From positions 112,874 through 176,873 of the forward strand of contig CAKRYT010000001.1 in NCBI GenBank assembly GCA_934432675.1: a stretch of 64,000 bases of DNA. The letters are read 5' to 3'. This DNA comes from an uncultured Eubacteriales bacterium (GTDB lineage Bacteria; Bacillota; Clostridia; Oscillospirales; CAG-272). How positions within the stretch are numbered: position 1 is the first letter of the stretch; each line of letters begins with the position of its first letter. The notes under the pieces are model-generated. The model ran no database searches. It saw nothing but the letters and a program-made list of their open reading frames with translations, and was not told the DNA's origin. Position numbers and translations under genes: made by a program. Shown here piece by piece: positions 16,895 through 25,125 of this stretch.

Positions 16895-18013
16895 ATGAAG
16901 TCCTATTTTTTACCGCCCCCGGGCGGCACCGCGGACGTGTGGACCCGTCTGCAAGACGAGACGCGCCCCATCGTCGTGTGGGGTATGGGCAACGGCGCGG
17001 ATAAACTGCTCCGTGTCTTCGCGGAGCGGGGGATCACCGCCGCGGATTTCGTCGCATCGGACGGATTCGTGCGCGGACAGTCGTTTCACGGGCGGCGCGT
17101 ACTTTCCTTTGCCGAGATGCGGGGAAAATATGTGTCTCCGGTGCTCGTCATGGCTTTCGGCACCTCGCGCCCCGAGGTTCTCTCGTGCGTCGCACGGACG
17201 GCGCGCGAGTTTCCGCTCCTGATTCCTGACCTTCCGGTGGCAGGGGAGGGGCTTTTCGATACGGAGTATTACCGGACCCACGAGGCGGCGTTTCGCATCG
17301 TGTGTGACCGCCTGGCGGATGAAACTTCGCGCTCTCTGTATGCCGCACTTGTCATCGGCAAACTTACGGGGGACTACGAGGTCCTCGCGGATGCGTGGAC
17401 GGACGGGGCGGAAACGGCGGAACTCCTCGGTGTTACAAAAATAAAAACATATATAGACGTCGGTGCCTACCGCGGAGACACGCTTGCGGAGCTGATCGGG
17501 CTGGGAGCACCGCTGACGCACGCCTTGTGCGTAGAGCCGGATGCGAGAAACTTCCTGAAATTGGAGCAAATGGCGGCTTTGCTTGCCCCGGTTTCGGTCA
17601 CCTGCGTCAATGCCGCGGCATGGGACCGGGAGGGGATGGGGTGCTTTTTCGGCAGCGGCAACCGCAATGCGTCCCTCTGCAACGCATCTTTCGAGAATCG
17701 ACCGGCAGACACGCGTCTTGCCACCATCGACACCCTGGCGGGAGGGCTCATACCCGACTACATCAAATACGATACCGAGGGGGCGGAGGTGCCAGGACTT
17801 CTGGGCACCGCGCTGACGATTTGCCGGGCAAGACCGAAACTGCGCGTGGCGGCCTATCACCGCACGGAGGACCTTATCCGCCTGCCGCAGTTGCTCACGG
17901 AGCTTTGCCCCGATTACTCGCTTTATCTGCGGCGCAAACGATGCCTCCCTGCTTGGGAGACGGATATCATTGCCCTACCGAAGGGAGGAATGACGATACA
18001 TGAAACCACTTGA
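16895..18013 (+). CDS. FkbM family SAM-dependent methyltransferase with an N-terminal Rossmann-like extension
   Basis: Central pattern YIDVGAYRGDT....(FkbM-type) ...IKYDTEGAE. The 3' end overlaps the next gene by 14 nt. Confidence 0.7.
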   Translation: MKSYFLPPPGGTADVWTRLQDETRPIVVWGMGNGADKLLRVFAERGITAADFVASDGFVRGQSFHGRRVLSFAEMRGKYVSPVLVMAFGTSRPEVLSCVARTAREFPLLIPDLPVAGEGLFDTEYYRTHEAAFRIVCDRLADETSRSLYAALVIGKLTGDYEVLADAWTDGAETAELLGVTKIKTYIDVGAYRGDTLAELIGLGAPLTHALCVEPDARNFLKLEQMAALLAPVSVTCVNAAAWDREGMGCFFGSGNRNASLCNASFENRPADTRLATIDTLAGGLIPDYIKYDTEGAEVPGLLGTALTICRARPKLRVAAYHRTEDLIRLPQLLTELCPDYSLYLRRKRCLPAWETDIIALPKGGMTIHETT

Positions 18014-19268
18014 AGGAAAACGGCCGGAACTGCTTTCTCCGGCAGGGAATTTTGAAAAGATGGAGGCGGCGATCCGCTACGGTGCGGACGCGGTCTATCT
18101 CGCGGGCAAGGCCTTCGGGATGCGGTCCGCCGCGGATAATTTTGGCGATGGAGAACTCGCCGATGCCATCCGCTACGCGCATGAACGGAAGGTGCGGGTC
18201 TACGTGACGGTCAACACCGCACCGCGCGATGCGGAGTATCCCGCGCTCGCCGCTTATCTGCGTCGCCTCGGCGAACTGGCACCCGACGCGCTCATCGTGG
18301 CGGATCTCGGTGTGTTTTCGCTCTGTCGCGAATTGCTCCCCGATATGGAACTCCATGTATCGACGCAAGCGAACAGTGTCTCGGCGGCGGATGTGCGTGC
18401 GTGGGGGCGGCTCGGGGCGAAACGCGTCGTGCTGTCGCGCGAGTTGACGCTGGATGAGATCCGCGCCATTCGTCGGGAGGTCCCCGCGGAAACGGAACTC
18501 GAATGTTTCATTCACGGCTCCATGTGCATTTCATACAGCGGCAGATGCCTTCTTTCCAATTACCTCTGCGGGCGGGATGCCAACCACGGTGCCTGCGCCC
18601 AGCCCTGCCGCTGGGAATACAGGATCCGCCCTGCGGCGTATGAACTCATCGAGCGTGAACGCCCCGATCTCCCCATCCCGATTGAGGAGGAGGCAGGGGA
18701 GACCTTCGTCATGTCCAGCCGCGATCTTTCGATGATCGCCCACGTACCGGAACTGATTGACGCGGGCGTAGCATCTTTCAAAATTGAGGGACGCATGAAG
18801 AGTGCTTATTATACCGCCGTTGTCACGAATGCGTATCGCATGGCGATCGACGCGGCCCTCCGCGGTGACCGCTCGGTAGACCCGCTCTGGCTGCGTGAAC
18901 TCGACAGCGTGTCGCATCGCGAGTATGATACCGGCTATTTTTACACCGATGTCCGTTCCGAGGCACTCACCTGCAAAAAGAGCGGTTACATCCGCGAGAA
19001 GGCGTATCTCGCCACAGTCCTCGCCTACGATGAGGCGACCGGGGAGGCTAAGTGCATACAACGGAACAAGGTCTCCGTCGGGGACACGGTGGAGTTGCTC
19101 ACCCCCGGGAAAGCGGGGCAGGGGTTTTTGTGCGAGCATCTGTTCGATGAGGCACACGAGGCGATCGTTTCCACGCCGCATCCTGCAATGATCTACTACC
19201 TGCCGGTACCTTTCCCGGTGCGACCGGGCGATATTCTCCGCGGCGGGGATCCCGCCCCCGGGCGATAA
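18000..19268 (+). CDS. Peptidase U32 family protein (YrrO/TrhP-like prephenate-dependent RNA hydroxylase family)
   Basis: N-terminus KPELLSPAGNFEKMEAAIRYGADAVYLAG. At 422 aa it is the same length class as B. subtilis YrrO. The Cys-rich segment FIHGSMCISYSGRCLLS is present. Confidence 0.85.
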   Translation: MKPLEGKRPELLSPAGNFEKMEAAIRYGADAVYLAGKAFGMRSAADNFGDGELADAIRYAHERKVRVYVTVNTAPRDAEYPALAAYLRRLGELAPDALIVADLGVFSLCRELLPDMELHVSTQANSVSAADVRAWGRLGAKRVVLSRELTLDEIRAIRREVPAETELECFIHGSMCISYSGRCLLSNYLCGRDANHGACAQPCRWEYRIRPAAYELIERERPDLPIPIEEEAGETFVMSSRDLSMIAHVPELIDAGVASFKIEGRMKSAYYTAVVTNAYRMAIDAALRGDRSVDPLWLRELDSVSHREYDTGYFYTDVRSEALTCKKSGYIREKAYLATVLAYDEATGEAKCIQRNKVSVGDTVELLTPGKAGQGFLCEHLFDEAHEAIVSTPHPAMIYYLPVPFPVRPGDILRGGDPAPGR

Positions 19269-19313
19269 CCGGACGGTCGGCGCACGTCGTGCTGGTCCGA
19301 TCTCCTCATTAGC

Positions 19314-19344
19314 ACAAAGCGGCTCGGTTTACGAGCCGCTTTGT
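19314..19344. terminator. Bidirectional terminator shared by the U32 gene (+) and the NACHT gene (-)
   Basis: Stem acaaagcggctcg / cgagccgctttgt with loop gttta. The hairpin contains the TAA stop of the minus-strand gene (19329-19331). Confidence 0.7.
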
Positions 19345-21938
19345 TGTATTCCGGATAAAGCGAGAAGTCCTTTGTCAACCGGTCGATGGGCGTCAATGGA
19401 GGCGCGCAAGGCCCGGTAGGTTTCACGCAGGTGCCGTTCAAAGGCAACTGCCCCCTTGGCGGTCAGTTTCCCGTGAGAGATGAGATATTGCAGGTAGGTT
19501 TGAGTGGAGGTGCCGTTTCCGACAGGTGCGTAGAGCGTTCGTTGGACGAGTTCATCCTCGGAGACGGATCCGTAGGTTTCGAGTATGGGGGGCGGCACAG
19601 ATCCACGATCCTCAATGAAAGAGCGGATGACGGTCATATCAATGGGACGGATGAACTTCTGGCGGTTTTCAGAACTGTTGAAATGCTCACGGAAACGGTC
19701 AGCGGTACGGTTCCACTCGCATCGATCACGGTCAGAGTAGCCGTAGGTTTCTTTCACGTCCTGGTGGTAGACCAGATAAACACCGCGGTTCAAAAGGTCA
19801 AAATCGGGGATGGACGTCATCAAACGGAAGTACCGTTGTTCGGCTGTATAGTCTTCGAGCTGGGAAAGCCAGTTGAGGATGGCGATGCTTTCCAGATAGG
19901 CCTTGCGGCGCAGATGATGCCGGAGCCGTTTCTGCATAAAGGAGCAAAGGTGGCGGAGCAGCTCCGGTTCCGTCATGACGAGACGCGGCATCATATAGAG
20001 AATCACGAGTTTCTGGCTGTGGTCGGTTGTCCTGGCGTAATGCAGTTTCAGATTGTCGAGCAGTATCTTGCGCTTTTCATACGGTTCGATGGCAATCAGG
20101 TCCGCGATCATACGGTTGGCTTCGGAGGAAAGCATGCTCGGGTTTTTGTAAAGTTCGCCCGTGCTTTCCGGGGCGGACATCAAAGCGATGGCTTCCTCTG
20201 CCAAAAAATACTCTTCAAATTGCAGATGAATCGGGGTGGCCCGGTAGTTGGAAACCGAATAAAACAGCGGAATGACGGAGAAGCCGCGCGGAAGTTTTGC
20301 TTCCTCTTCCAGCCTGTGTTGTACGGTGGGGATGTCTGCCGGGTGCCTGCCGCCGAGATGCAGTTGCCAGGCAAAGGTGCAGAGCAGGCGGCGTGCGGCG
20401 GCGATATTTTCATCGGGATCGATTCCGCGCTTGCGCAACTCCTGCCGGCACATGGAATCAACCGTGGAGCGAAGCAGAAGTCCGGCGGAAAAGCGGGAGA
20501 AACGATCTGTGAAAGCGGTGATGCCCTCATTCCGGATGTTCCACAGTGCCAGTTTCACAATGAGCGGTGCGAGTGGCGGTATGGGAGAGGAATCTGCGGT
20601 GAGAGGAGTGCTGTCATGACTCGTCCGATCCGTTTTTCCAATCGTAGAGTCTGCACTGACAAACCGCCTGATGGCGGTACATGCCAGGCCGGCCTCCGCC
20701 GGGGCGGTGTGTGCACAGACAAAGCGACGTATCTGTTCCCAGTCCCAGCCGAGTAAGCAGTACCGGTATCCAAAAGCGGAGATCAGACCGTACAGTTCCA
20801 GCACCTTGACGACAGAACGTCTGGTTGTGAGGAGAATACTGTGTGCATGCCGCACGGAGAGAATTTCATGTACCAGTGTGTCTGTTTGCGTAGCGGACAT
20901 GCCGATGCAGGCCTCGTCCAGTGCATCCAGATAATAATCAAAGCGGAGCCCGTTCGTATTGAGGAACGAAGGGTAAGTCATGCCATTCGGCAAAAGTTCG
21001 TCCCAGAGATCGTGCAGCAAATTTTCGGAGAGAGCATAGTCCGCTCCCCGACCGGAGAGAGAAAAGAGAATCGGTATGGGGGCGGTACTGCCGCCGTCCG
21101 GATCGGCCGTGCGGGCGTGAAGTGCCGCCAGGTAAGCTTTTTTCAGGGCGGTACTTTTCCCGCTCCCGGCATCTCCCTCGATGAGTACACGGGCGCCTTC
21201 TCCGGCGCGCATATGCGAGACTACGGCAGAGACAAGGTCTCCGGTATACTCTTCCGACTTTGCGGCGGTGTAGGTGACACCGATGCCGTCGTTGTCCGCA
21301 CCGAGTGAAAAAATGTCGGAAGTAAGGCATTCGGAGACGTAACGTGACTGTGCACGCACGAGATATTCTTCGATAAAATAGCGGCTGAGACCACGGAGAC
21401 GGTCGAGGGCGATCCCGGCGATCTCTTCCGGAGCACCGTCTTTGTAGGGAAAGAAAATGGTGCTTTTGCGATCGTTGTCCGCCGCATCCGCGATGTCAAG
21501 CACCCAGGAAAAGAGCTTTGCCGGATTGTCATAGATGTCGGAGCAGTCGGCGAGAAAACGCTCGCGCGCCTTTTCGTCAAGATTCCGGTATGTGAAAGCG
21601 TCCTTTTTGACGCGCTCGCTGACGAGGGTAATCACCGGGATCCGGACACTTTTTGCATGCCGATATTCGTCTTCTGTATAGGAGCAGCCGATTTCCGGCA
21701 CCATCGTCCCGTAGATCGAGTTGATGAGCAGGATTACGCATTGACAACCGTCGAGGGTCCTCAGACAGTTTTCGCGCACGTTCGCGTCATATGCAACCGG
21801 AAAATCCGCGCGGGAGTAAAGGACGGGTGTGACCCCCCAACTGCGGTCCATTTCGCACGCGAGGTGGTTGCGTGCGAGCGCGTCTTCCGTGGTCCCGTGA
21901 GAAGAAGAGATAAAAATGCGCCACTTGGTCGTGCTCAT
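19329..21938 (-). CDS. STAND NTPase: N-terminal DUF4062/TIR-like domain, NACHT P-loop module and a helical C-terminal region
   Basis: aa 6-106 carry RIFISSSHG.., CQCVILLINSIYG and SYTEDEYRHA..IPVITLV (DUF4062-like pattern). The NACHT module shows Walker A GDAGSGKST (nt 21150-21176), Walker B YYLDALDE (nt 20913-20936), ILLTTR, and the NACHT winged-helix signature IHLQFEEYFLAEEA. SD AAGGAG lies 10 nt upstream of the ATG. Confidence 0.8.
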   Translation of the reverse strand: MSTTKWRIFISSSHGTTEDALARNHLACEMDRSWGVTPVLYSRADFPVAYDANVRENCLRTLDGCQCVILLINSIYGTMVPEIGCSYTEDEYRHAKSVRIPVITLVSERVKKDAFTYRNLDEKARERFLADCSDIYDNPAKLFSWVLDIADAADNDRKSTIFFPYKDGAPEEIAGIALDRLRGLSRYFIEEYLVRAQSRYVSECLTSDIFSLGADNDGIGVTYTAAKSEEYTGDLVSAVVSHMRAGEGARVLIEGDAGSGKSTALKKAYLAALHARTADPDGGSTAPIPILFSLSGRGADYALSENLLHDLWDELLPNGMTYPSFLNTNGLRFDYYLDALDEACIGMSATQTDTLVHEILSVRHAHSILLTTRRSVVKVLELYGLISAFGYRYCLLGWDWEQIRRFVCAHTAPAEAGLACTAIRRFVSADSTIGKTDRTSHDSTPLTADSSPIPPLAPLIVKLALWNIRNEGITAFTDRFSRFSAGLLLRSTVDSMCRQELRKRGIDPDENIAAARRLLCTFAWQLHLGGRHPADIPTVQHRLEEEAKLPRGFSVIPLFYSVSNYRATPIHLQFEEYFLAEEAIALMSAPESTGELYKNPSMLSSEANRMIADLIAIEPYEKRKILLDNLKLHYARTTDHSQKLVILYMMPRLVMTEPELLRHLCSFMQKRLRHHLRRKAYLESIAILNWLSQLEDYTAEQRYFRLMTSIPDFDLLNRGVYLVYHQDVKETYGYSDRDRCEWNRTADRFREHFNSSENRQKFIRPIDMTVIRSFIEDRGSVPPPILETYGSVSEDELVQRTLYAPVGNGTSTQTYLQYLISHGKLTAKGAVAFERHLRETYRALRASIDAHRPVDKGLLALSGIQQSGS

Positions 21939-21959
21939 AGCCTGTCCGCTCCTTTGCTG

Positions 21960-22643
21960 TCAGTTTGGTTGATCGAGGACGGATTCCCAGCGGATGGGGG
22001 TCATGCCGTTTTCAATCAGAAAGTGATTGCATTTGGAAAAGTGTCTGCAACCGAAAAATCCGTTGTAAGCAGAGAGCGGTGATGGGTGTACCGTTTCCAG
22101 GATGAGATGCCGTGGGTTGGTGATCAAACTTTTTTTGGAACGGGCATTCCCACCCCAGAGCAAAAAGACGATGGGGTGATCGGCGTCGTTCAGTGACCGT
22201 ATGACGGCGTCGGTAAAAGTCTCCCAGCCGTGCCCCTTGTGGCTTTGCGGTGCACCGGCGCGGACGGTGAGGGTCGTGTTCAGGAGCAGGACGCCCTGGT
22301 CTGCCCAACTTTGGAGATAGCCGCCCTTCGGCTTCGGCATGCCGATATCGTCGGCGAGTTCACGGTAGATGTTGCAGAGCGACGGCGGCGGCTCCACCCC
22401 CGGCTGCACGGAGAAACACAGACCGTGCGCCTGCCCGGGGCCGTGGTAGGGGTCCTGACCGAGGATGACGGCTTTCACCTTGGCGTACGGCGTACTTTTC
22501 AGGGCATTGAAAATGTGATACATATCGGGGTAGATGCGCCTCGTCGCGTATTCTTCTTTCAGAAAGGCGCGCAGGGCGAGGTAGTATTCCTTTTGGAACT
22601 CTCCCCCGATGACTCCGTCCCAGTCGTTACCGATTTTCGGCAT
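21960..22643 (-). CDS. ung: Uracil-DNA glycosylase (family 1)
   Basis: Motifs GQDPYHGPGQAHGLCFSV and HPSPLSA. Confidence 0.96.
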   Translation of the reverse strand: MPKIGNDWDGVIGGEFQKEYYLALRAFLKEEYATRRIYPDMYHIFNALKSTPYAKVKAVILGQDPYHGPGQAHGLCFSVQPGVEPPPSLCNIYRELADDIGMPKPKGGYLQSWADQGVLLLNTTLTVRAGAPQSHKGHGWETFTDAVIRSLNDADHPIVFLLWGGNARSKKSLITNPRHLILETVHPSPLSAYNGFFGCRHFSKCNHFLIENGMTPIRWESVLDQPN

Positions 22644-22700: not shown

Positions 22701-23630
22701 TCAGCAGAAAACGCTTTCGATGACGCGCTCGCAACAGGAGGGGGAGTATCGCCAGGTATCCATGTGGGTATGTTCTTTTGTGTCGGTAAAGTAACGCATC
22801 GGGGTGACGGTACCGCCGGCGGCGGAATCAATAATGATTAACTTGATCTTCATCTTTTCCGGCAGGATGCTCTTGATGTAAACGGCGGCAATCTGGTTGA
22901 CCTCGACTCCTTCCTTCAACTCGGCGAGCCCCGCGAGATTCGGTGTCAGTTCCACGAAGATGCCGTACGGCTCAATGGAGCGCACGATACCCGCCACGGT
23001 CTGCCCGGGGGTGAAGAGTGCGGCATTTTCCTCCCAGTTGCCGAGCAATTCCCGGTGCGAGACGTAAATGCGTCCTTCTTCGTCAATCGTTTTCACGACG
23101 GTAAAGATGCGGTCCCCGGGGGAGAAACGGACACGCGGATGGGAAATACGCGAGACCGATATGCTGTCGATCGAGAGCAGGGAAACGAGCCCGCACCCGA
23201 TGTCCACGAATGCCCCGAAGTTTTCGAGATGCGTGACGGCGGCGGGGATGATGTCCCCGGGGATGAGTGTGGAGACGTAGTGCTCCATACAGTCTTTTTG
23301 AGCCTCGCGCCGCGAGAGCACCGCAGAGACGCCGTCCGCGTCCCGCTCAAATCCGATGATCTTGAAGCAGACGGGTTTGCCTACGCGGGTGAGTACGGCA
23401 ATGTCCTTAACCGTTTCTCCCGGGCGACAATAGACGACCTCCTCCCGTGGCATCTTACCGGGGATGCCGCCGAGATCAAAATGCAGACAAAAATTGCTGT
23501 CGCAGAGCAGTGCGACGGATTCCAGGATCTTTCCGCGCTCCATGGCCTTTTCGAGCCCGGCGCGCCCTTGGAGATACTCCGTGTTTTCTGCCCCCGAGAG
23601 CAGAGATCCTTCCGGTTGATACGGATACAT
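22701..23630 (-). CDS. S1 RNA-binding domain-containing protein
   Basis: Two to three S1/OB motifs (GDIIPAAVTHLENFGAFVDIG, GQTVAGIVRSIEPYGIFVEL). I chose the start at ATG 23630 (SD aagagg), because the longer ORF-track start would overlap the thioesterase gene. Confidence 0.8.
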   Translation of the reverse strand: MYPYQPEGSLLSGAENTEYLQGRAGLEKAMERGKILESVALLCDSNFCLHFDLGGIPGKMPREEVVYCRPGETVKDIAVLTRVGKPVCFKIIGFERDADGVSAVLSRREAQKDCMEHYVSTLIPGDIIPAAVTHLENFGAFVDIGCGLVSLLSIDSISVSRISHPRVRFSPGDRIFTVVKTIDEEGRIYVSHRELLGNWEENAALFTPGQTVAGIVRSIEPYGIFVELTPNLAGLAELKEGVEVNQIAAVYIKSILPEKMKIKLIIIDSAAGGTVTPMRYFTDTKEHTHMDTWRYSPSCCERVIESVFC

Positions 23631-23778
23631 AACATACACCTCTTTTTCGTAGTCTTTTGTTTGTGATACAATACCAAGATATGAGAGAGGTTGTCCTGTC
23701 ATGACCCGTTCGACAAAACTAGAAGAAACATAAGAAAAAACACCCGTTTGCGACCGGGTGTTTTCTGGCTTGCGACGG

Positions 23779-24495
23779 TTACAGATCCGCCTGGGTGAGG
23801 GACGCCTCGGCATTGATCTCGCCGTCCGCGCGGATTGTGCGAAAACCGAATGAGCCGTCGGGGAGCACCGTGCGGTAAACCGTCAGGGTCTCTCCGATGG
23901 GGGCGTCTTTTTGGAAACGGATGGAGAAGTGGGGAATCCACTTTCCCTTCATGTCGAGAAATCCCGTGAAGAGGTCGGGATAGAAGGTGTTGTTGAGGTG
24001 CAGGTTGCGGTCGGTCTGTCCGTAGGTGACGGTATAGGTGCCGACAGGCTCCATCATATCCGTGTGGGGGAGAGGAAACCGTTTCATCCGGTAGGCGGGC
24101 AGGGGCATCGGTACAAAGCGGGAGGGATAGTCTTCAAACCGTTGCAGGGCCTTGGTCGCGATGTCGACGAGCCCGAATTGACCGAGCCCCTCGGCAATCA
24201 GCTCCCCCTCGCCGCGTAGTGCATAATAACGGGGAAAAAGAAAACCGCGCCCGGTGCAACCGCAGCTCTCGCTCTCCAAGACTTCGTAGGTGCGGATGGG
24301 GCGTCGCAGGGTGACATCGATCGCCGTGAGCACGAAGGCTTTGCCCTGTGCCCGCATTTCCTCATTGGAGGGTCCCTCGCCGTGCAGTTGTCCGTTGGCG
24401 GCGATTTGCAGGTAGCGCAGGAGTGCGGACGGGCGTATGATCCCGTTCAGATCCTCATCGTGGATATCTGTGACGATATGGCTGACCCAACTCAT
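23779..24495 (-). CDS. Acyl-ACP thioesterase
   Basis: Double hot-dog size (238 aa), and an N-terminal D...DLN..I.PSALLRYLQ pattern typical of FatA/B-like bacterial thioesterases. Confidence 0.7.
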   Translation of the reverse strand: MSWVSHIVTDIHDEDLNGIIRPSALLRYLQIAANGQLHGEGPSNEEMRAQGKAFVLTAIDVTLRRPIRTYEVLESESCGCTGRGFLFPRYYALRGEGELIAEGLGQFGLVDIATKALQRFEDYPSRFVPMPLPAYRMKRFPLPHTDMMEPVGTYTVTYGQTDRNLHLNNTFYPDLFTGFLDMKGKWIPHFSIRFQKDAPIGETLTVYRTVLPDGSFGFRTIRADGEINAEASLTQADL

Positions 24496-24580: not shown

Positions 24581-24988
24581 TTAAATATTCGGTTTGATGC
24601 TGCGGGGCACTGTCGGCGACGGAGGAGGGGCGACGGTATGGGGGGTCAGCCCGAAACTGACAGAGATGGCACTGTCCACCTTTTGCATCAGGGCATCGGG
24701 GAGATGCCCCATCTTTTCACGCAGGCGTTGCTTATCCAGGGTACGGATCTGTTCCAGAAGAATGACGGAATCCCGTGTCAATCCCACGTCCGACGCGAAA
24801 ATGTCAATATGTGTCGGCAGCTTGGCTTTCCCCATTTTGCTTGTAATGGCAGCGGCAATGACCGTCGGACTGTAACGGTTTCCGACGTCATTCTGCACGA
24901 TCAGTACCGGGCGCAGACCGCCTTGCTCGCTCCCTACGACCGGGGATAGGTCCGCATAATAGATATCACCGCGTTTTATGTTCATCAT
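24581..24988 (-). CDS. mazF: Type II toxin, MazF/EndoA (PemK) family endoribonuclease
   Basis: Near-colinear with B. subtilis EndoA: [42 protein letters not shown]...KAKLPTH....[16 protein letters not shown]. There is an extra Pro-rich C-terminal tail of about 18 aa. The start is ambiguous (24985, 24988 or 25009). Confidence 0.9.
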
Positions 24989-25125
24989 GACGCTTTGCGC
25001 GTAACGCATTCCTTTCTGTGACTCGGCATCCCGTGCATTCAGTCTCCCCGCCGGGCGGCACTTTTAATCACCGATTTCAGAAATCTCTCATTGTTAGGGT
25101 ATTTTGAGAACTGTCATCGTGTGAA

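Follow-up and report, generated by a model that had tools for sequence, protein, structure and literature searches.

The question raised by this locus is what an 869-aa protein with the layout of an immune sensor does as a lone gene among housekeeping genes of an uncultured Eubacteriales bacterium (the window, i.e. the whole stretch of DNA analysed, spans 64,000 nucleotides). The initial annotation had described a single minus-strand reading frame of 869 aa, joining an effector, a STAND NTPase and a C-terminal region; the former was recovered in the ORF list and the latter holds in domain searches and in a structural model (AF2; pLDDT 88.5, pTM 0.87). We find the ORF to be genuine and undisrupted, with purifying selection acting on it; its product is an intact bacterial NLR-like protein whose role is most likely that of an anti-phage sensor. 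The close homologues (n=5) measure 838-869 aa, and the conspecific variants (n=34) have 869 aa in all cases among the matches listed. The motifs first quoted (GDAGSGKST, YYLDALDE, ILLTTR and IHLQFEEYFLAEEA) all sit at the positions assigned to them, while the active-site glutamates, initially numbered E88/E91, are correctly E89 and E91 (Table 1).

Table 1. Features of the DUF4062-NACHT locus (positions within the window; aa, residues of the encoded protein).
Feature	Position (nt)	Strand	Basis
Complete CDS, DUF4062-NACHT-helical-tail protein	19329..21938	-	869 aa + stop; ORF list
DUF4062 TIR-like domain, aa 1-183, five parallel strands with flanking helices	21390..21938	-	Pfam PF13271, AF2 secondary structure, Foldseek
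Putative active-site motif S86-Y87-T88-E89-D90-E91-Y92, start of helix alphaC	21663..21683	-	Family conservation, KpSwz alignment
NACHT nucleotide-binding domain, aa 222-400	20739..21275	-	Pfam (sub-cut-off), family matches, Foldseek
Walker A / P-loop GDAGSGKST, aa 255-263, K261	21150..21176	-	G258, G260, K261 invariant in 47 sequences
Walker B YYLDALDE, aa 335-342	20913..20936	-	D338, E342 invariant; D341 in 45/47
Sensor-1 strand ILLTTR, aa 368-373, R373	20820..20837	-	R373 in 46/47; model strand E365-373
Helical domain 1 and winged-helix domain, aa 401-588	20175..20738	-	Model secondary structure
Winged-helix signature IHLQFEEYFLAEEA, aa 570-583, H571	20190..20231	-	H571 in 45/47, A580 in 44/47
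Conserved C-terminal helical domain, aa 589-869	19332..20174	-	Near-invariant residues, weak alphaRep profile match, model
ung (uracil-DNA glycosylase), directly upstream, co-directional, probable operon partner	21960..22643	-	Pfam UDG
Ribosome-binding site AAGGAG, 10 nt 5' of ATG	21949..21954	-	Sequence read; lies in the 21 nt that separate the ung stop codon from the ATG
GC-rich inverted repeat over the stop codon, probable bidirectional terminator	19303..19355	.	Arms 19303-19326 and 19332-19355

The N-terminal head was matched by Pfam DUF4062 (PF13271) over aa 7-95 (E = 1.8e-10, 41.3 bits against a cut-off of 24.7), as were all 47 of the 47 family members, and its model strands (aa 6-12, 36-39, 67-72, 102-107 and 162-165) form a TIR/NDT-like flavodoxin fold. 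Foldseek retrieved DNPH1 (TM 0.70 on target), nucleoside 2-deoxyribosyltransferases and TIR-STING with a probability of 1.0, phage deoxyribosyltransferases being also among the structural matches; the above-cut-off score and the fold matches thus uphold the original identification of this domain as a TIR/nucleoside-deoxyribosyltransferase-like DUF4062. The putative S-x-T-E-x-E-Y active-site motif is retained, with E89 or E91 as the candidate catalytic glutamate: E91 is invariant (47/47), S86 and T88 occur in 44/47 and 46/47 family members, and position 89 is occupied by Glu in 25, His in 10 and Gln in 6 of the 47. Sequence similarity to the DUF4062 domain of KpSwz (PDB 10wc) is weak (~50 residues, E = 0.03-0.8); the catalytic E97 of KpSwz aligns with E89 (10.64898/2026.05.01.722283), and the E91-Y92 pair corresponds to the E87-Y88 region of Eva01 (10.64898/2026.06.25.731849). 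SSSHG is inserted into the first loop in the window clade, and the window sub-clade has Gln at position 66 (all 16/16 conspecific variants, P0003 and P0004) where 43/47 family members and KpSwz have Asp, so that catalysis could be altered.

For the NTPase, Pfam NACHT (PF05729) remained below its cut-off on the window protein alone (aa 250-379, 21.8 bits against 26.7); 40/47 full-length family members were matched at E <= 0.01 (best E = 2.4e-10), and related proteins exceeded the cut-off when scanned singly (P0074, 39.9 bits; P0086, 28.0 bits). The window protein has the full set of NACHT motifs (Walker A, Walker B, sensor-1 Arg and winged-helix His). The family consensus for Walker B is hhhDGhDE, the DGhDE form being that of NACHT-type proteins, and the window protein has Ala for the family Gly at position 339; the winged-helix consensus (G-x-x-H-E-Q-F-x-E-Y-L-x-A) comes after a beta-hairpin wing (E560-569) in the model. 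A clade-specific disordered insertion (~aa 429-456, nt 20571-20654; missing from P0004 and P0005) lies in the HD1/winged-helix region, where pLDDT <50 is confined to aa 431-443. In Foldseek the NBD-HD1-WHD fold was closest to NACHT NLRs, with NOD2 (5irn, E = 5e-7), the NLRP3 NACHT (9hg4, TM 0.48 on target) and NLRC4 (4kxf) as top matches (probability 1.0), Avs4 and Avs3 after these, and Apaf-1 and AAA+ proteins lower. The homologue matches, the family-invariant motifs and the model agree in supporting the NACHT-type assignment that had been proposed.

The C-terminal ~280 aa are, as first described, helical and devoid of a recognised repeat family: no Pfam family was found there in any of the 47 members, and the match to an alphaRep (HEAT-like) profile is weak (E = 1.7e-4). 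The model (pLDDT mostly >85 in this region) has ~7 HEAT-like helices (aa 605-724) followed by a second helical module. The idea of a variable sensor is contradicted, as this is a conserved domain that evolves no faster than the remaining protein (dN/dS 0.106), with many invariant polar residues and ten near-invariant positions family-wide (N608, Y648, R652, E700, N717, R718, Y724, D736, W742 and H752). Such conservation of the presumed sensor domain, without diversification, fits a ligand that is itself conserved, or a function outside immunity.

The initial view that no characterised family accommodates the protein was corroborated by the PADLOC and NCBIfam models, none of which matched it beyond a P-loop-level resemblance to mad8 (the sole PADLOC match, E = 0.035); no Avs1-5 or bNACHT defence-finder HMM (PADLOC) recognised it, and the PADLOC matches of the 47 family members were likewise weak and P-loop-level (e.g., PDC-S60 in 4/47). 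DUF4062-NACHT proteins of ~800 aa, the window protein included, constitute an undescribed family. The effector-STAND-sensor reading is well founded, because two 2026 preprints showed experimentally that DUF4062 is an antiphage NADase acting through abortive infection, in Swarozyc (10.64898/2026.05.01.722283) and Evangelion (10.64898/2026.06.25.731849). Similar to Swarozyc (KpSwz) and Evangelion (Eva01), the window protein is the product of a single gene and has an N-terminal DUF4062 TIR-like domain with an S-x-T-E motif, coupled to a C-terminal region (required for activation in those systems); NAD+ depletion and abortive infection are for the window protein proposed features. These systems differ in being ~300-350 aa long, in lacking an NTPase and carrying a short auxiliary (AUX) domain instead, and in residing in defence islands or on plasmids, whereas the window protein combines NACHT with another C-terminal domain and its gene is syntenic and chromosomal; KpSwz has, moreover, the conserved Asp66 where the window protein has Gln. 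Membership in Swarozyc/Evangelion was rejected on account of the 869-aa length, the presence of NACHT and a similarity to KpSwz limited to ~50-75 DUF4062 residues.

With bNACHT and Avs/AVAST proteins the window protein shares the effector-STAND NTPase-sensor layout and NACHT-type motifs, Avs4/Avs3 are among its structural matches, and effectors are swapped among its relatives; it differs in having a short, conserved C-terminal domain of ~280 aa that is of neither the TPR nor the Avs type, in lacking a PADLOC Avs/bNACHT match and in a gene located outside defence islands. Within the literature surveyed, no DUF4062 effector was found among the tested bacterial NLRs. DUF4062 does stand directly N-terminal to NACHT in the eukaryotic TEP1, NWD1, NWD2 and NPHP3, the TEP1 DUF4062 is an active NADase, and activation by NACHT oligomerisation has been proposed for TEP1 (10.64898/2026.05.01.722283). 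The same order, with a helical domain next, is found in these proteins, in bacterial TEP1-like proteins and in the window protein, and a few family members have weak Pfam NPHP3_N matches; the eukaryotic and TEP1-like proteins, however, bear WD40 or TPR sensors (TEP1 also TROVE and vWA) that the window protein lacks. A TEP1-like (TROVE-DUF4062-NACHT-WD40) assignment was rejected, as neither TROVE nor WD40 was matched in the window protein or in any of 47 relatives, and we found no evidence of orthology with the eukaryotic and TEP1-like proteins.

The neighbours of the gene encode S1, Ung, U32, FkbM-type methyltransferase, HIT and L19 proteins, and neither integrase nor transposase was found near it, nor do its flanks hold a meaningful repeat; neighbour annotation and repeat search thus agree with the housekeeping-only setting reported initially, and the gene shows neither the defence or mobile neighbours nor the variable strain presence of a defence island. 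It is apparently co-transcribed with ung, the spacer measuring 21 nt in the window, L001 and L169 and 37 nt in L002, with a 4-nt overlap in L166; no promoter-like site was found in this spacer, and transcription of S1-ung probably continues into the gene. The bidirectional-terminator candidate separates it from the convergent U32 gene, and a terminator-like hairpin (19325-19338) forms a short stem separate from the inverted repeat.

The low GC noted initially, which would hint at a foreign origin, is contradicted by host-like values of GC (0.555 vs 0.571 +/- 0.030 in 44 window ORFs), GC3 (0.639 vs 0.660 +/- 0.054) and codon usage (9th most typical of the 44). Against a 79%-identity orthologue dN/dS is 0.13 and alike in all domains (0.18 in DUF4062), and relatives spanning 97% to 46% identity have it in the same ung -> gene <- U32 slot. 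Intact copies occur in 9/9 conspecific contigs, among which no presence/absence polymorphism was seen, and E89, E91, the P-loop and Walker B are kept in 16/16 conspecific variants. Together with a good ribosome-binding site and the terminator hairpin, these observations speak for a functional gene. The initial annotation had held that a syntenic core gene of host-like composition would speak against its proposal, and this is largely what we found clade-wide (97%-46% identity); yet the gene is missing from the slot in the next-nearest relatives (U32 60-65% identical). In the window clade it is a stably and vertically inherited solo gene, fixed downstream of ung and off any mobile island. Host-like composition, long synteny and the lack of strain polymorphism are atypical for defence genes; the patchiness at the deeper level is, alongside head swapping, conflict-gene-like behaviour.

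In the main clade of the family, DUF4062-NACHT is the fourth gene of an uncharacterised radical-SAM (B12-binding) / HD / N6-N4 DNA methyltransferase cassette (metagenome loci L085-L116). The cassette-borne proteins are members of the same family from end to end (22-25% identity across ~800 aa; pairwise E = 1e-21 to 1e-36) and have all motifs in common with the window protein, including the C-terminal domain; the window gene, like its nearest outgroups, differs in being solo, and the window clade additionally in SSSHG and Q66. Where the cassette has three co-directional partner genes upstream, the window has ung and the S1-domain gene, and tblastn of partner proteins (E <= 0.01) recovered no homologue of the radical-SAM, HD, MTase, NUDIX or Macro proteins in the 64-kb window. 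The label of a single-gene system consequently stands for this locus and fails for the family, most of which sits in the four-gene cassette; as the cassette is missing here, the solo protein may lack needed partners. Solo forms make up several distinct clades. Among relatives that share the NACHT and C-terminal module, the head is CHAT or TIR-like, or a GT4-conflict domain is added; P0007 adjoins a TIR + SLOG gene pair and P0008 an AAA_15/21 ATPase, while in the L117-L120 branch the family gene is directly followed by one for a ThsA-type Macro protein that has two transmembrane helices (the architecture of the type II Thoeris effector, which binds a TIR-made ADPR derivative). In one cassette variant a serine recombinase is accompanied by a transmembrane ThsA-Macro protein, and P0007, P0008 and L117 have the defence-island setting that the window gene lacks. 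Judged from sequence, head swapping and defence-type neighbours point to conflict biology in this family.

We favour, with moderate confidence, a NACHT-type STAND immune sensor with an N-terminal DUF4062 TIR-like NAD+ hydrolase as executioner of abortive infection, encoded by a vertically inherited solo gene. We infer a resting state in which a nucleotide-bound monomer would be autoinhibited, His571 of the winged helix and Arg373 of sensor-1 helping to keep the closed form. A trigger arising during infection by a phage or other mobile element would bind the conserved C-terminal helical domain, allowing the Walker A/B site (K261, D341/E342) to exchange its nucleotide and the NACHT modules to oligomerise. 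Oligomerisation would gather the DUF4062 heads and open their active sites (E89/E91), which would split NAD+ into ADP-ribose plus nicotinamide, leaving a cell that no longer supports replication.

Four other explanations have to be weighed against this one. One is a domesticated, non-immune NACHT regulator fixed in the ung operon, adjusting NAD+ or nucleotide metabolism upon an endogenous signal (uracil or abasic DNA, nucleotide-pool stress), and several observations agree with it: the tight ung linkage (21-nt spacer or 4-nt overlap) over 97-46% identity, the core-gene-like presence within the species, the host-like composition, the uniform purifying selection with a conserved C-terminal domain, an N-domain fold shared with DNPH1 and deoxyribosyltransferases (enzymes acting on deoxynucleotides), and the wiring of the main clade to DNA methyltransferase, HD and radical-SAM enzymes. 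The S1-ung adjacency, however, is also present in relatives without the gene; ung therefore needs no such partner, and the linkage may reflect insertion at an operon end. Given that other family members are not beside ung, and given the CHAT, TIR-like and GT4-conflict swapping and the defence-type neighbours, we hold this regulator to be unlikely. The same linkage could mean that the NLR guards Ung, sensing phage Ung inhibitors (Ugi, p56-like) or Ung-processed uracil phage DNA and responding by NAD+ depletion. Firmicutes phages are known to encode Ung inhibitors, the translationally close coupling is kept clade-wide and a conserved sensor domain fits a conserved target; but the case is purely circumstantial, no other family branch is linked to ung, and the sensor domain is common to cassette-borne relatives without ung nearby, so its ligand is unlikely to be Ung-specific. 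Such a guard is the most improbable of the explanations considered.

The head could instead act as Thoeris TIR proteins do, making an ADP-ribose-derived messenger for an effector encoded elsewhere in the genome. The adjacent Macro protein of the L117-L120 branch and the TIR + SLOG pair beside P0007 are in keeping with this, and according to Osinski et al. the activities of DUF4062 may extend past simple NADase action (10.64898/2026.05.01.722283). Nevertheless, no Macro, SLOG or other receptor-effector gene lies nearby, the 64-kb window holds no partner homologue, and both characterised DUF4062 systems deplete NAD+ directly, which makes signal generation quite unlikely here. The missing cassette partners and the Gln that replaces near-invariant Asp66 in all 16 conspecific variants, P0003 and P0004 would also suit a catalytically impaired relic of the four-gene cassette, which has lost its partners and full NADase (D66Q) and now serves as scaffold or decoy, or slowly decays. 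This we consider very unlikely, since purifying selection acts on every domain (DUF4062, at dN/dS 0.18, included), no variant has lost E89, E91, the P-loop or Walker B, every contig has an undisrupted ORF, and solo forms of several distinct clades do not reflect a single accident.

Returning to the immune sensor that we favour, a further and distinctly speculative thought, quite unlikely in our estimate, concerns what the conserved C-terminal domain of the family may recognise: rather than a structural protein of a phage, this could be the condition of DNA bases or the modification of nucleotides, with the radical-SAM/HD/MTase enzymes as partners in the main clade and a re-wiring to Ung (e.g., to Ung inhibition or uracil-DNA processing) in the window clade. 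If this were true, the protein would be a modification-aware or repair-guarding NLR that kills through NAD+ cleavage.

The window gene, an 869-codon open reading frame, contains every motif quoted in the initial annotation where it had been placed, with one glutamate of the N-terminal domain misnumbered (E89, given as E88). The window protein matched Pfam DUF4062 at aa 7-95 (41.3 bits against a gathering score of 24.7 bits, E = 1.8e-10), and the DUF4062 assignment thus stands. By Pfam score the NACHT assignment was borne out at the level of the family and not of the single protein: taken alone the protein scored 21.8 bits against a cut-off of 26.7 (the nSTAND_NTPase5 score was also under its Pfam cut-off), whereas in the 47-sequence family alignment NACHT was matched by 40 members (best E = 2.4e-10) and DUF4062 by all. 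No meaningful match to PADLOC or NCBIfam models was found for the window protein, and the family as a whole is without representation in PADLOC.

By searching 1.84 billion cluster representatives exhaustively with HMMER we recovered 798 matches at E <= 1e-3, with 73 of them reaching E <= 1e-10. Dozens are 800-830 aa long, their alignment starting at the N-terminus and running as far as position 780-800 or so; a word-indexed search with the family profile returned only unrelated NACHT-HEAT proteins. Beyond the window clade, members share 17-26% identity with the window protein (a nine-sequence alignment served for the locus search). Across the 47 sequences G77, E91, G258, G260, K261, P323, D338, E342 and P458 are invariant, and nearly invariant positions extend from the N-terminal through the winged-helix part (S12, C58, D66, S86, T88, D341, R373, W398, H571, A580) into the C-terminal part (Y648, E700, R718, Y724, D727, W742, H752, R765). 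The family Walker B (hhhDGhDE), sensor-1 (TxR) and winged-helix (H-E-Q-F-x-E-Y-L-x-A) patterns are what we take to be NACHT signatures. A Ser/Thr/Pro/Asp-rich, low-confidence insertion (Table) is limited to the closest orthologues and is missing from the homologues P0004 and P0005.

The AlphaFold2 model built from the 47 sequences (pLDDT 88.5, pTM 0.87) replaced a first one from six sequences, whose NTPase part was of low quality (pLDDT 59). Its top structural matches in the PDB were NOD2, the NLRP3 NACHT and NLRC4, followed by RPP1, Avs4, Avs3, SAMD9 and Apaf-1, and the predicted fold therefore agrees with the STAND NTPase placement of the initial annotation. The TIR/deoxyribosyltransferase-like character proposed for the N-terminal domain was likewise recovered, as this domain of the shallow first model matched DNPH1, nucleoside deoxyribosyltransferases and TIR-STING. 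By sequence, the PDB yielded only a weak match to KpSwz (the Swarozyc protein, a single-gene DUF4062 antiphage NADase) and a P-loop match to NOD2.

In the putative active site HMMER pairs window E89 with the KpSwz glutamate at chain position 82, which is E97 (the construct begins at residue 15-16), a residue shown to be indispensable for both defence and NAD+ depletion (10.64898/2026.05.01.722283). The family-invariant glutamate is E91, and together with the aromatic residue next to it resembles the catalytic E-Y (E87-Y88) of the Evangelion protein Eva01 (10.64898/2026.06.25.731849); E89 and E91 are both kept in all 16 conspecific variants examined. Position 66 is Asp in 43 of the 47 family members and in KpSwz, and Gln in the window sub-clade: Gln66 occurs in the window protein, in 16/16 conspecific variants and in the orthologues of 79% and 63% identity, while the 46%-identity orthologue retains Asp66. 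This exchange could bear on catalysis in the sub-clade.

The helical C-terminus without a recognised repeat, as first described, is also what we found: aa 589-851 are helical and confidently modelled, and no Pfam family was detected in this region in any of the 47 members. Full-length fold searches were dominated by NACHT matches, and the family profile matched only designed HEAT-like alphaRep proteins, weakly (E = 1.7e-4). The domain is more than a bland repeat scaffold: conserved polar and aromatic residues run through it (ExNR, YxxxR, NRGxHLxY, D, W..T, H, RRID), N608, R652, N717 and D736 being further conserved positions, and suggest a defined binding site.

A word-indexed search with the window protein returned five relatives only (97, 89, 79, 63 and 46% identity), and all the close relatives that could be placed share the same slot, in which an S1-domain gene, ung and the window gene follow one another and the U32 and FkbM-methyltransferase genes run towards them. 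The gene begins 21 nt after the ung stop codon in the window and in the retrieved loci L001 and L169, and 37 nt after it in L002, while in L166 there is no spacer, its start codon and the ung stop overlapping by 4 nt. Considering this close spacing, the AAGGAG site ahead of the window gene ATG, the lack of a promoter-like site in the spacer and the GC-rich hairpin that straddles the window gene stop codon, we reason that co-transcription with ung is likely. A strong terminator-like hairpin directly upstream of the S1-domain gene probably marks the beginning of the S1-ung-DUF4062/NACHT transcription unit.

Other features were recorded in this neighbourhood. The S1 reading frame was probably called too long. 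The FkbM-type methyltransferase and U32 'peptidase' genes overlap, and since their adjacency is kept in all relatives, gene-less ones included, they probably form a conserved operon unconnected with the window gene. A PemK/MazF-type toxin gene, with no obvious antitoxin frame of at least 80 aa adjoining it, is kept in L001, L166 and L169, and in relatives is preceded by a DUF378 gene.

Coordinates of the features in the window, its protein and the retrieved loci
Feature	Locus and position (nt)	Strand	Residues (aa)	Remarks
Window gene	window 19329-21938	minus		869 codons (ORF listing of the window)
DUF4062 motif	window protein		S86-Y87-T88-E89-D90-E91-Y92	
Walker A, GDAGSGKST	window protein		255-263	sequence read
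Walker B, YYLDALDE	window protein		335-342	sequence read
ILLTTR	window protein		368-373	sequence read
IHLQFEEYFLAEEA	window protein		570-583	sequence read
Gln66 codon	window 21741-21743		66	
Insertion	window 20571-20654		429-456	between helical domain 1 and winged-helix domain
FkbM-type methyltransferase and U32 genes	window 16895-19268	plus		overlap of 14 nt (18000-18013)
S1 ORF call	window 22701-23813			internal ATG start probable, 309-aa product as in relatives
Terminator-like hairpin	window 23735-23766	minus		12 bp, T-run
PemK/MazF-type toxin gene	window 24581-25009	minus		142 aa; Pfam 126 bits; ~2.6 kb upstream of window gene
UppP-like undecaprenyl-diphosphatase slots	L007:9232-10077; L008:9237-12347; L009:9253-16925			read by eye
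Main cassette	L085-L116, e.g. L089:5976-12430; L097:1138-7603			B12-binding radical-SAM (~490 aa), HD (~445 aa), N6/N4 DNA methyltransferase (~393 aa), DUF4062-NACHT
Variant cassette	L117:208-7326; also L118-L120			serine recombinase, B12-binding radical-SAM, NUDIX (144 aa), DUF4062-NACHT, TM-Macro protein
Pair downstream of P0007	L163:12737-14519			TIR-domain protein (382 aa), then LD_cluster3/SLOG protein (213 aa)

The comparison of the U32-ung junction across relatives, which the initial annotation had proposed, gave a split answer, with the gene present in the nearest genome and in conspecific contigs and absent from more distant relatives. All nine contigs with an identical Ung carry it, and an apparent frameshift or split in L170 proved to be a gap in the scaffold, filled with N, and no mutation. 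Among 80 species-representative genomes retrieved through U32 it was found only in the nearest (L005, U32 72% identical); L007-L010 and L035 (U32 60-62% identical) keep the HIT-MT21-U32...ung-S1 synteny without it. In the three gene-less slots that we read by eye from translations there is a UppP-like gene, alone or with ordinary-looking and variable metabolic or transport genes (NUDIX, esterase, YitT-like, BMP-family ABC transporter, phosphoribosyltransferase), and none for defence; uppP is missing from this position in the window clade. We conclude from the present/absent pattern that a single acquisition, in the ancestor of one clade, was followed by inheritance in place. Given the ordinary-looking slot content of the gene-less relatives, as read by eye, we rejected the idea that the junction is a hot-spot of integration or a defence island. 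The flanks hold no direct or inverted repeats that could pass for insertion scars, only short chance matches and the terminator hairpin, in keeping, for direct repeats, with what had been stated earlier, and a tblastn search of 72,556 plasmids with a central family member gave a single match, to the DUF4062 domain only.

The low GC content put forward in the initial annotation did not survive measurement against 44 long ORFs of the window: the gene is typical in GC (0.555 vs 0.571 +/- 0.030) and GC3 (0.639 vs 0.660 +/- 0.054) and ranks as the ninth most typical in codon usage, by which a foreign composition is ruled out. Against the 79%-identity orthologue its dN/dS is 0.131, with similar values in all domains (DUF4062 0.18, NACHT NBD 0.11, HD/WH 0.15, C-terminus 0.11), the neighbours having 0.045 (ung), 0.022 (S1), 0.068 (U32) and 0.115 (MT21), all approximate figures as dS is about 1. 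As judged from these substitution rates, the window protein diverges more quickly than Ung, S1 and U32, yet is clearly maintained by selection, and its putative sensor domain (the C-terminal one) evolves no faster than the remaining protein.

The wider family behaves in the manner of conflict genes. In the metagenome loci of the main clade the DUF4062-NACHT gene closes a compact row of four genes read in one direction (Table), the three partners being complete in all 18 loci with sufficient upstream sequence and, as expected, partial in six incomplete contigs. The radical-SAM protein weakly matches the PADLOC candidate model PDC-M51A, none of the papers searched describes the cassette, and the 64-kb window holds no homologues of the partner genes. 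A variant cassette (L117-L120) ends in a protein (290 aa in L117) that combines a pair of N-terminal transmembrane helices with a ThsA-type Macro domain. This protein resembles a type II Thoeris effector, which points to DUF4062 as a possible signal producer in this branch. Elsewhere the same NACHT and C-terminal module carries a CHAT protease head (P0049, just under the Pfam cut-off), a head that is TIR-like by its N-terminal sequence (P0074, YFICFRGD; its own Pfam scan reported no TIR family) or an additional C-terminal GT4-conflict glycosyltransferase (PF20706; P0050 and P0086). The outgroups closest to the window clade occur as solo genes: P0007, the nearest of them (26% identity), adjoins a Thoeris-like TIR and LD_cluster3/SLOG pair situated just past a polysaccharide-synthesis gene cluster, P0008 adjoins an AAA_15/21 ATPase, and P0012 and P0013 have uninformative surroundings.

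Most economically, the window protein is read as an NLR-like immune sensor whose effector is a DUF4062 NADase, and by analogy we propose that it would work like bNACHT/Avs and like Swarozyc/Evangelion, although it belongs to neither group (no HMM match, and a different architecture and sensor in both comparisons). Enzyme activity, trigger and phenotype are what we infer here: the C-terminal domain would bind a trigger, the NACHT module would then oligomerise and activate the DUF4062 NADase, and the ensuing loss of NAD+ would lead to abortive infection. Unusually for a defence gene, the window gene combines long vertical inheritance with host-like composition, a lack of strain polymorphism, tight coupling to ung and a conserved sensor domain, and these features keep three alternatives alive, namely that the gene has been domesticated to a non-immune role, that its product guards Ung, or that it employs signalling (Thoeris-like) chemistry instead of NAD+ depletion.

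DUF4062 has been known as an immune NADase since 2026, in small NTPase-less proteins only (10.64898/2026.05.01.722283; 10.64898/2026.06.25.731849). In animal TEP1, NWD1, NWD2 and NPHP3 it precedes a NACHT ATPase, whose control over the NADase is a matter of speculation (10.64898/2026.05.01.722283); the window protein has this DUF4062-NACHT junction in common with them, but not their WD40, TPR and TROVE parts. Hence the bacterial family, compact (~800 aa) and well modelled, could be a tractable system for NACHT-driven DUF4062 NADase activation. The radical-SAM/HD/DNA-methyltransferase/DUF4062-NACHT cassette of the relatives, with its radical-SAM/NUDIX/TM-Macro variant, is a separate lead, possibly more novel than the window gene, towards a multi-gene system of defence or modification that would be new. 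The window gene itself is an NLR-like gene outside the mobile 'defence island' lifestyle, stably inherited and coupled to ung, and genes of this kind are a blind spot of island-based discovery.
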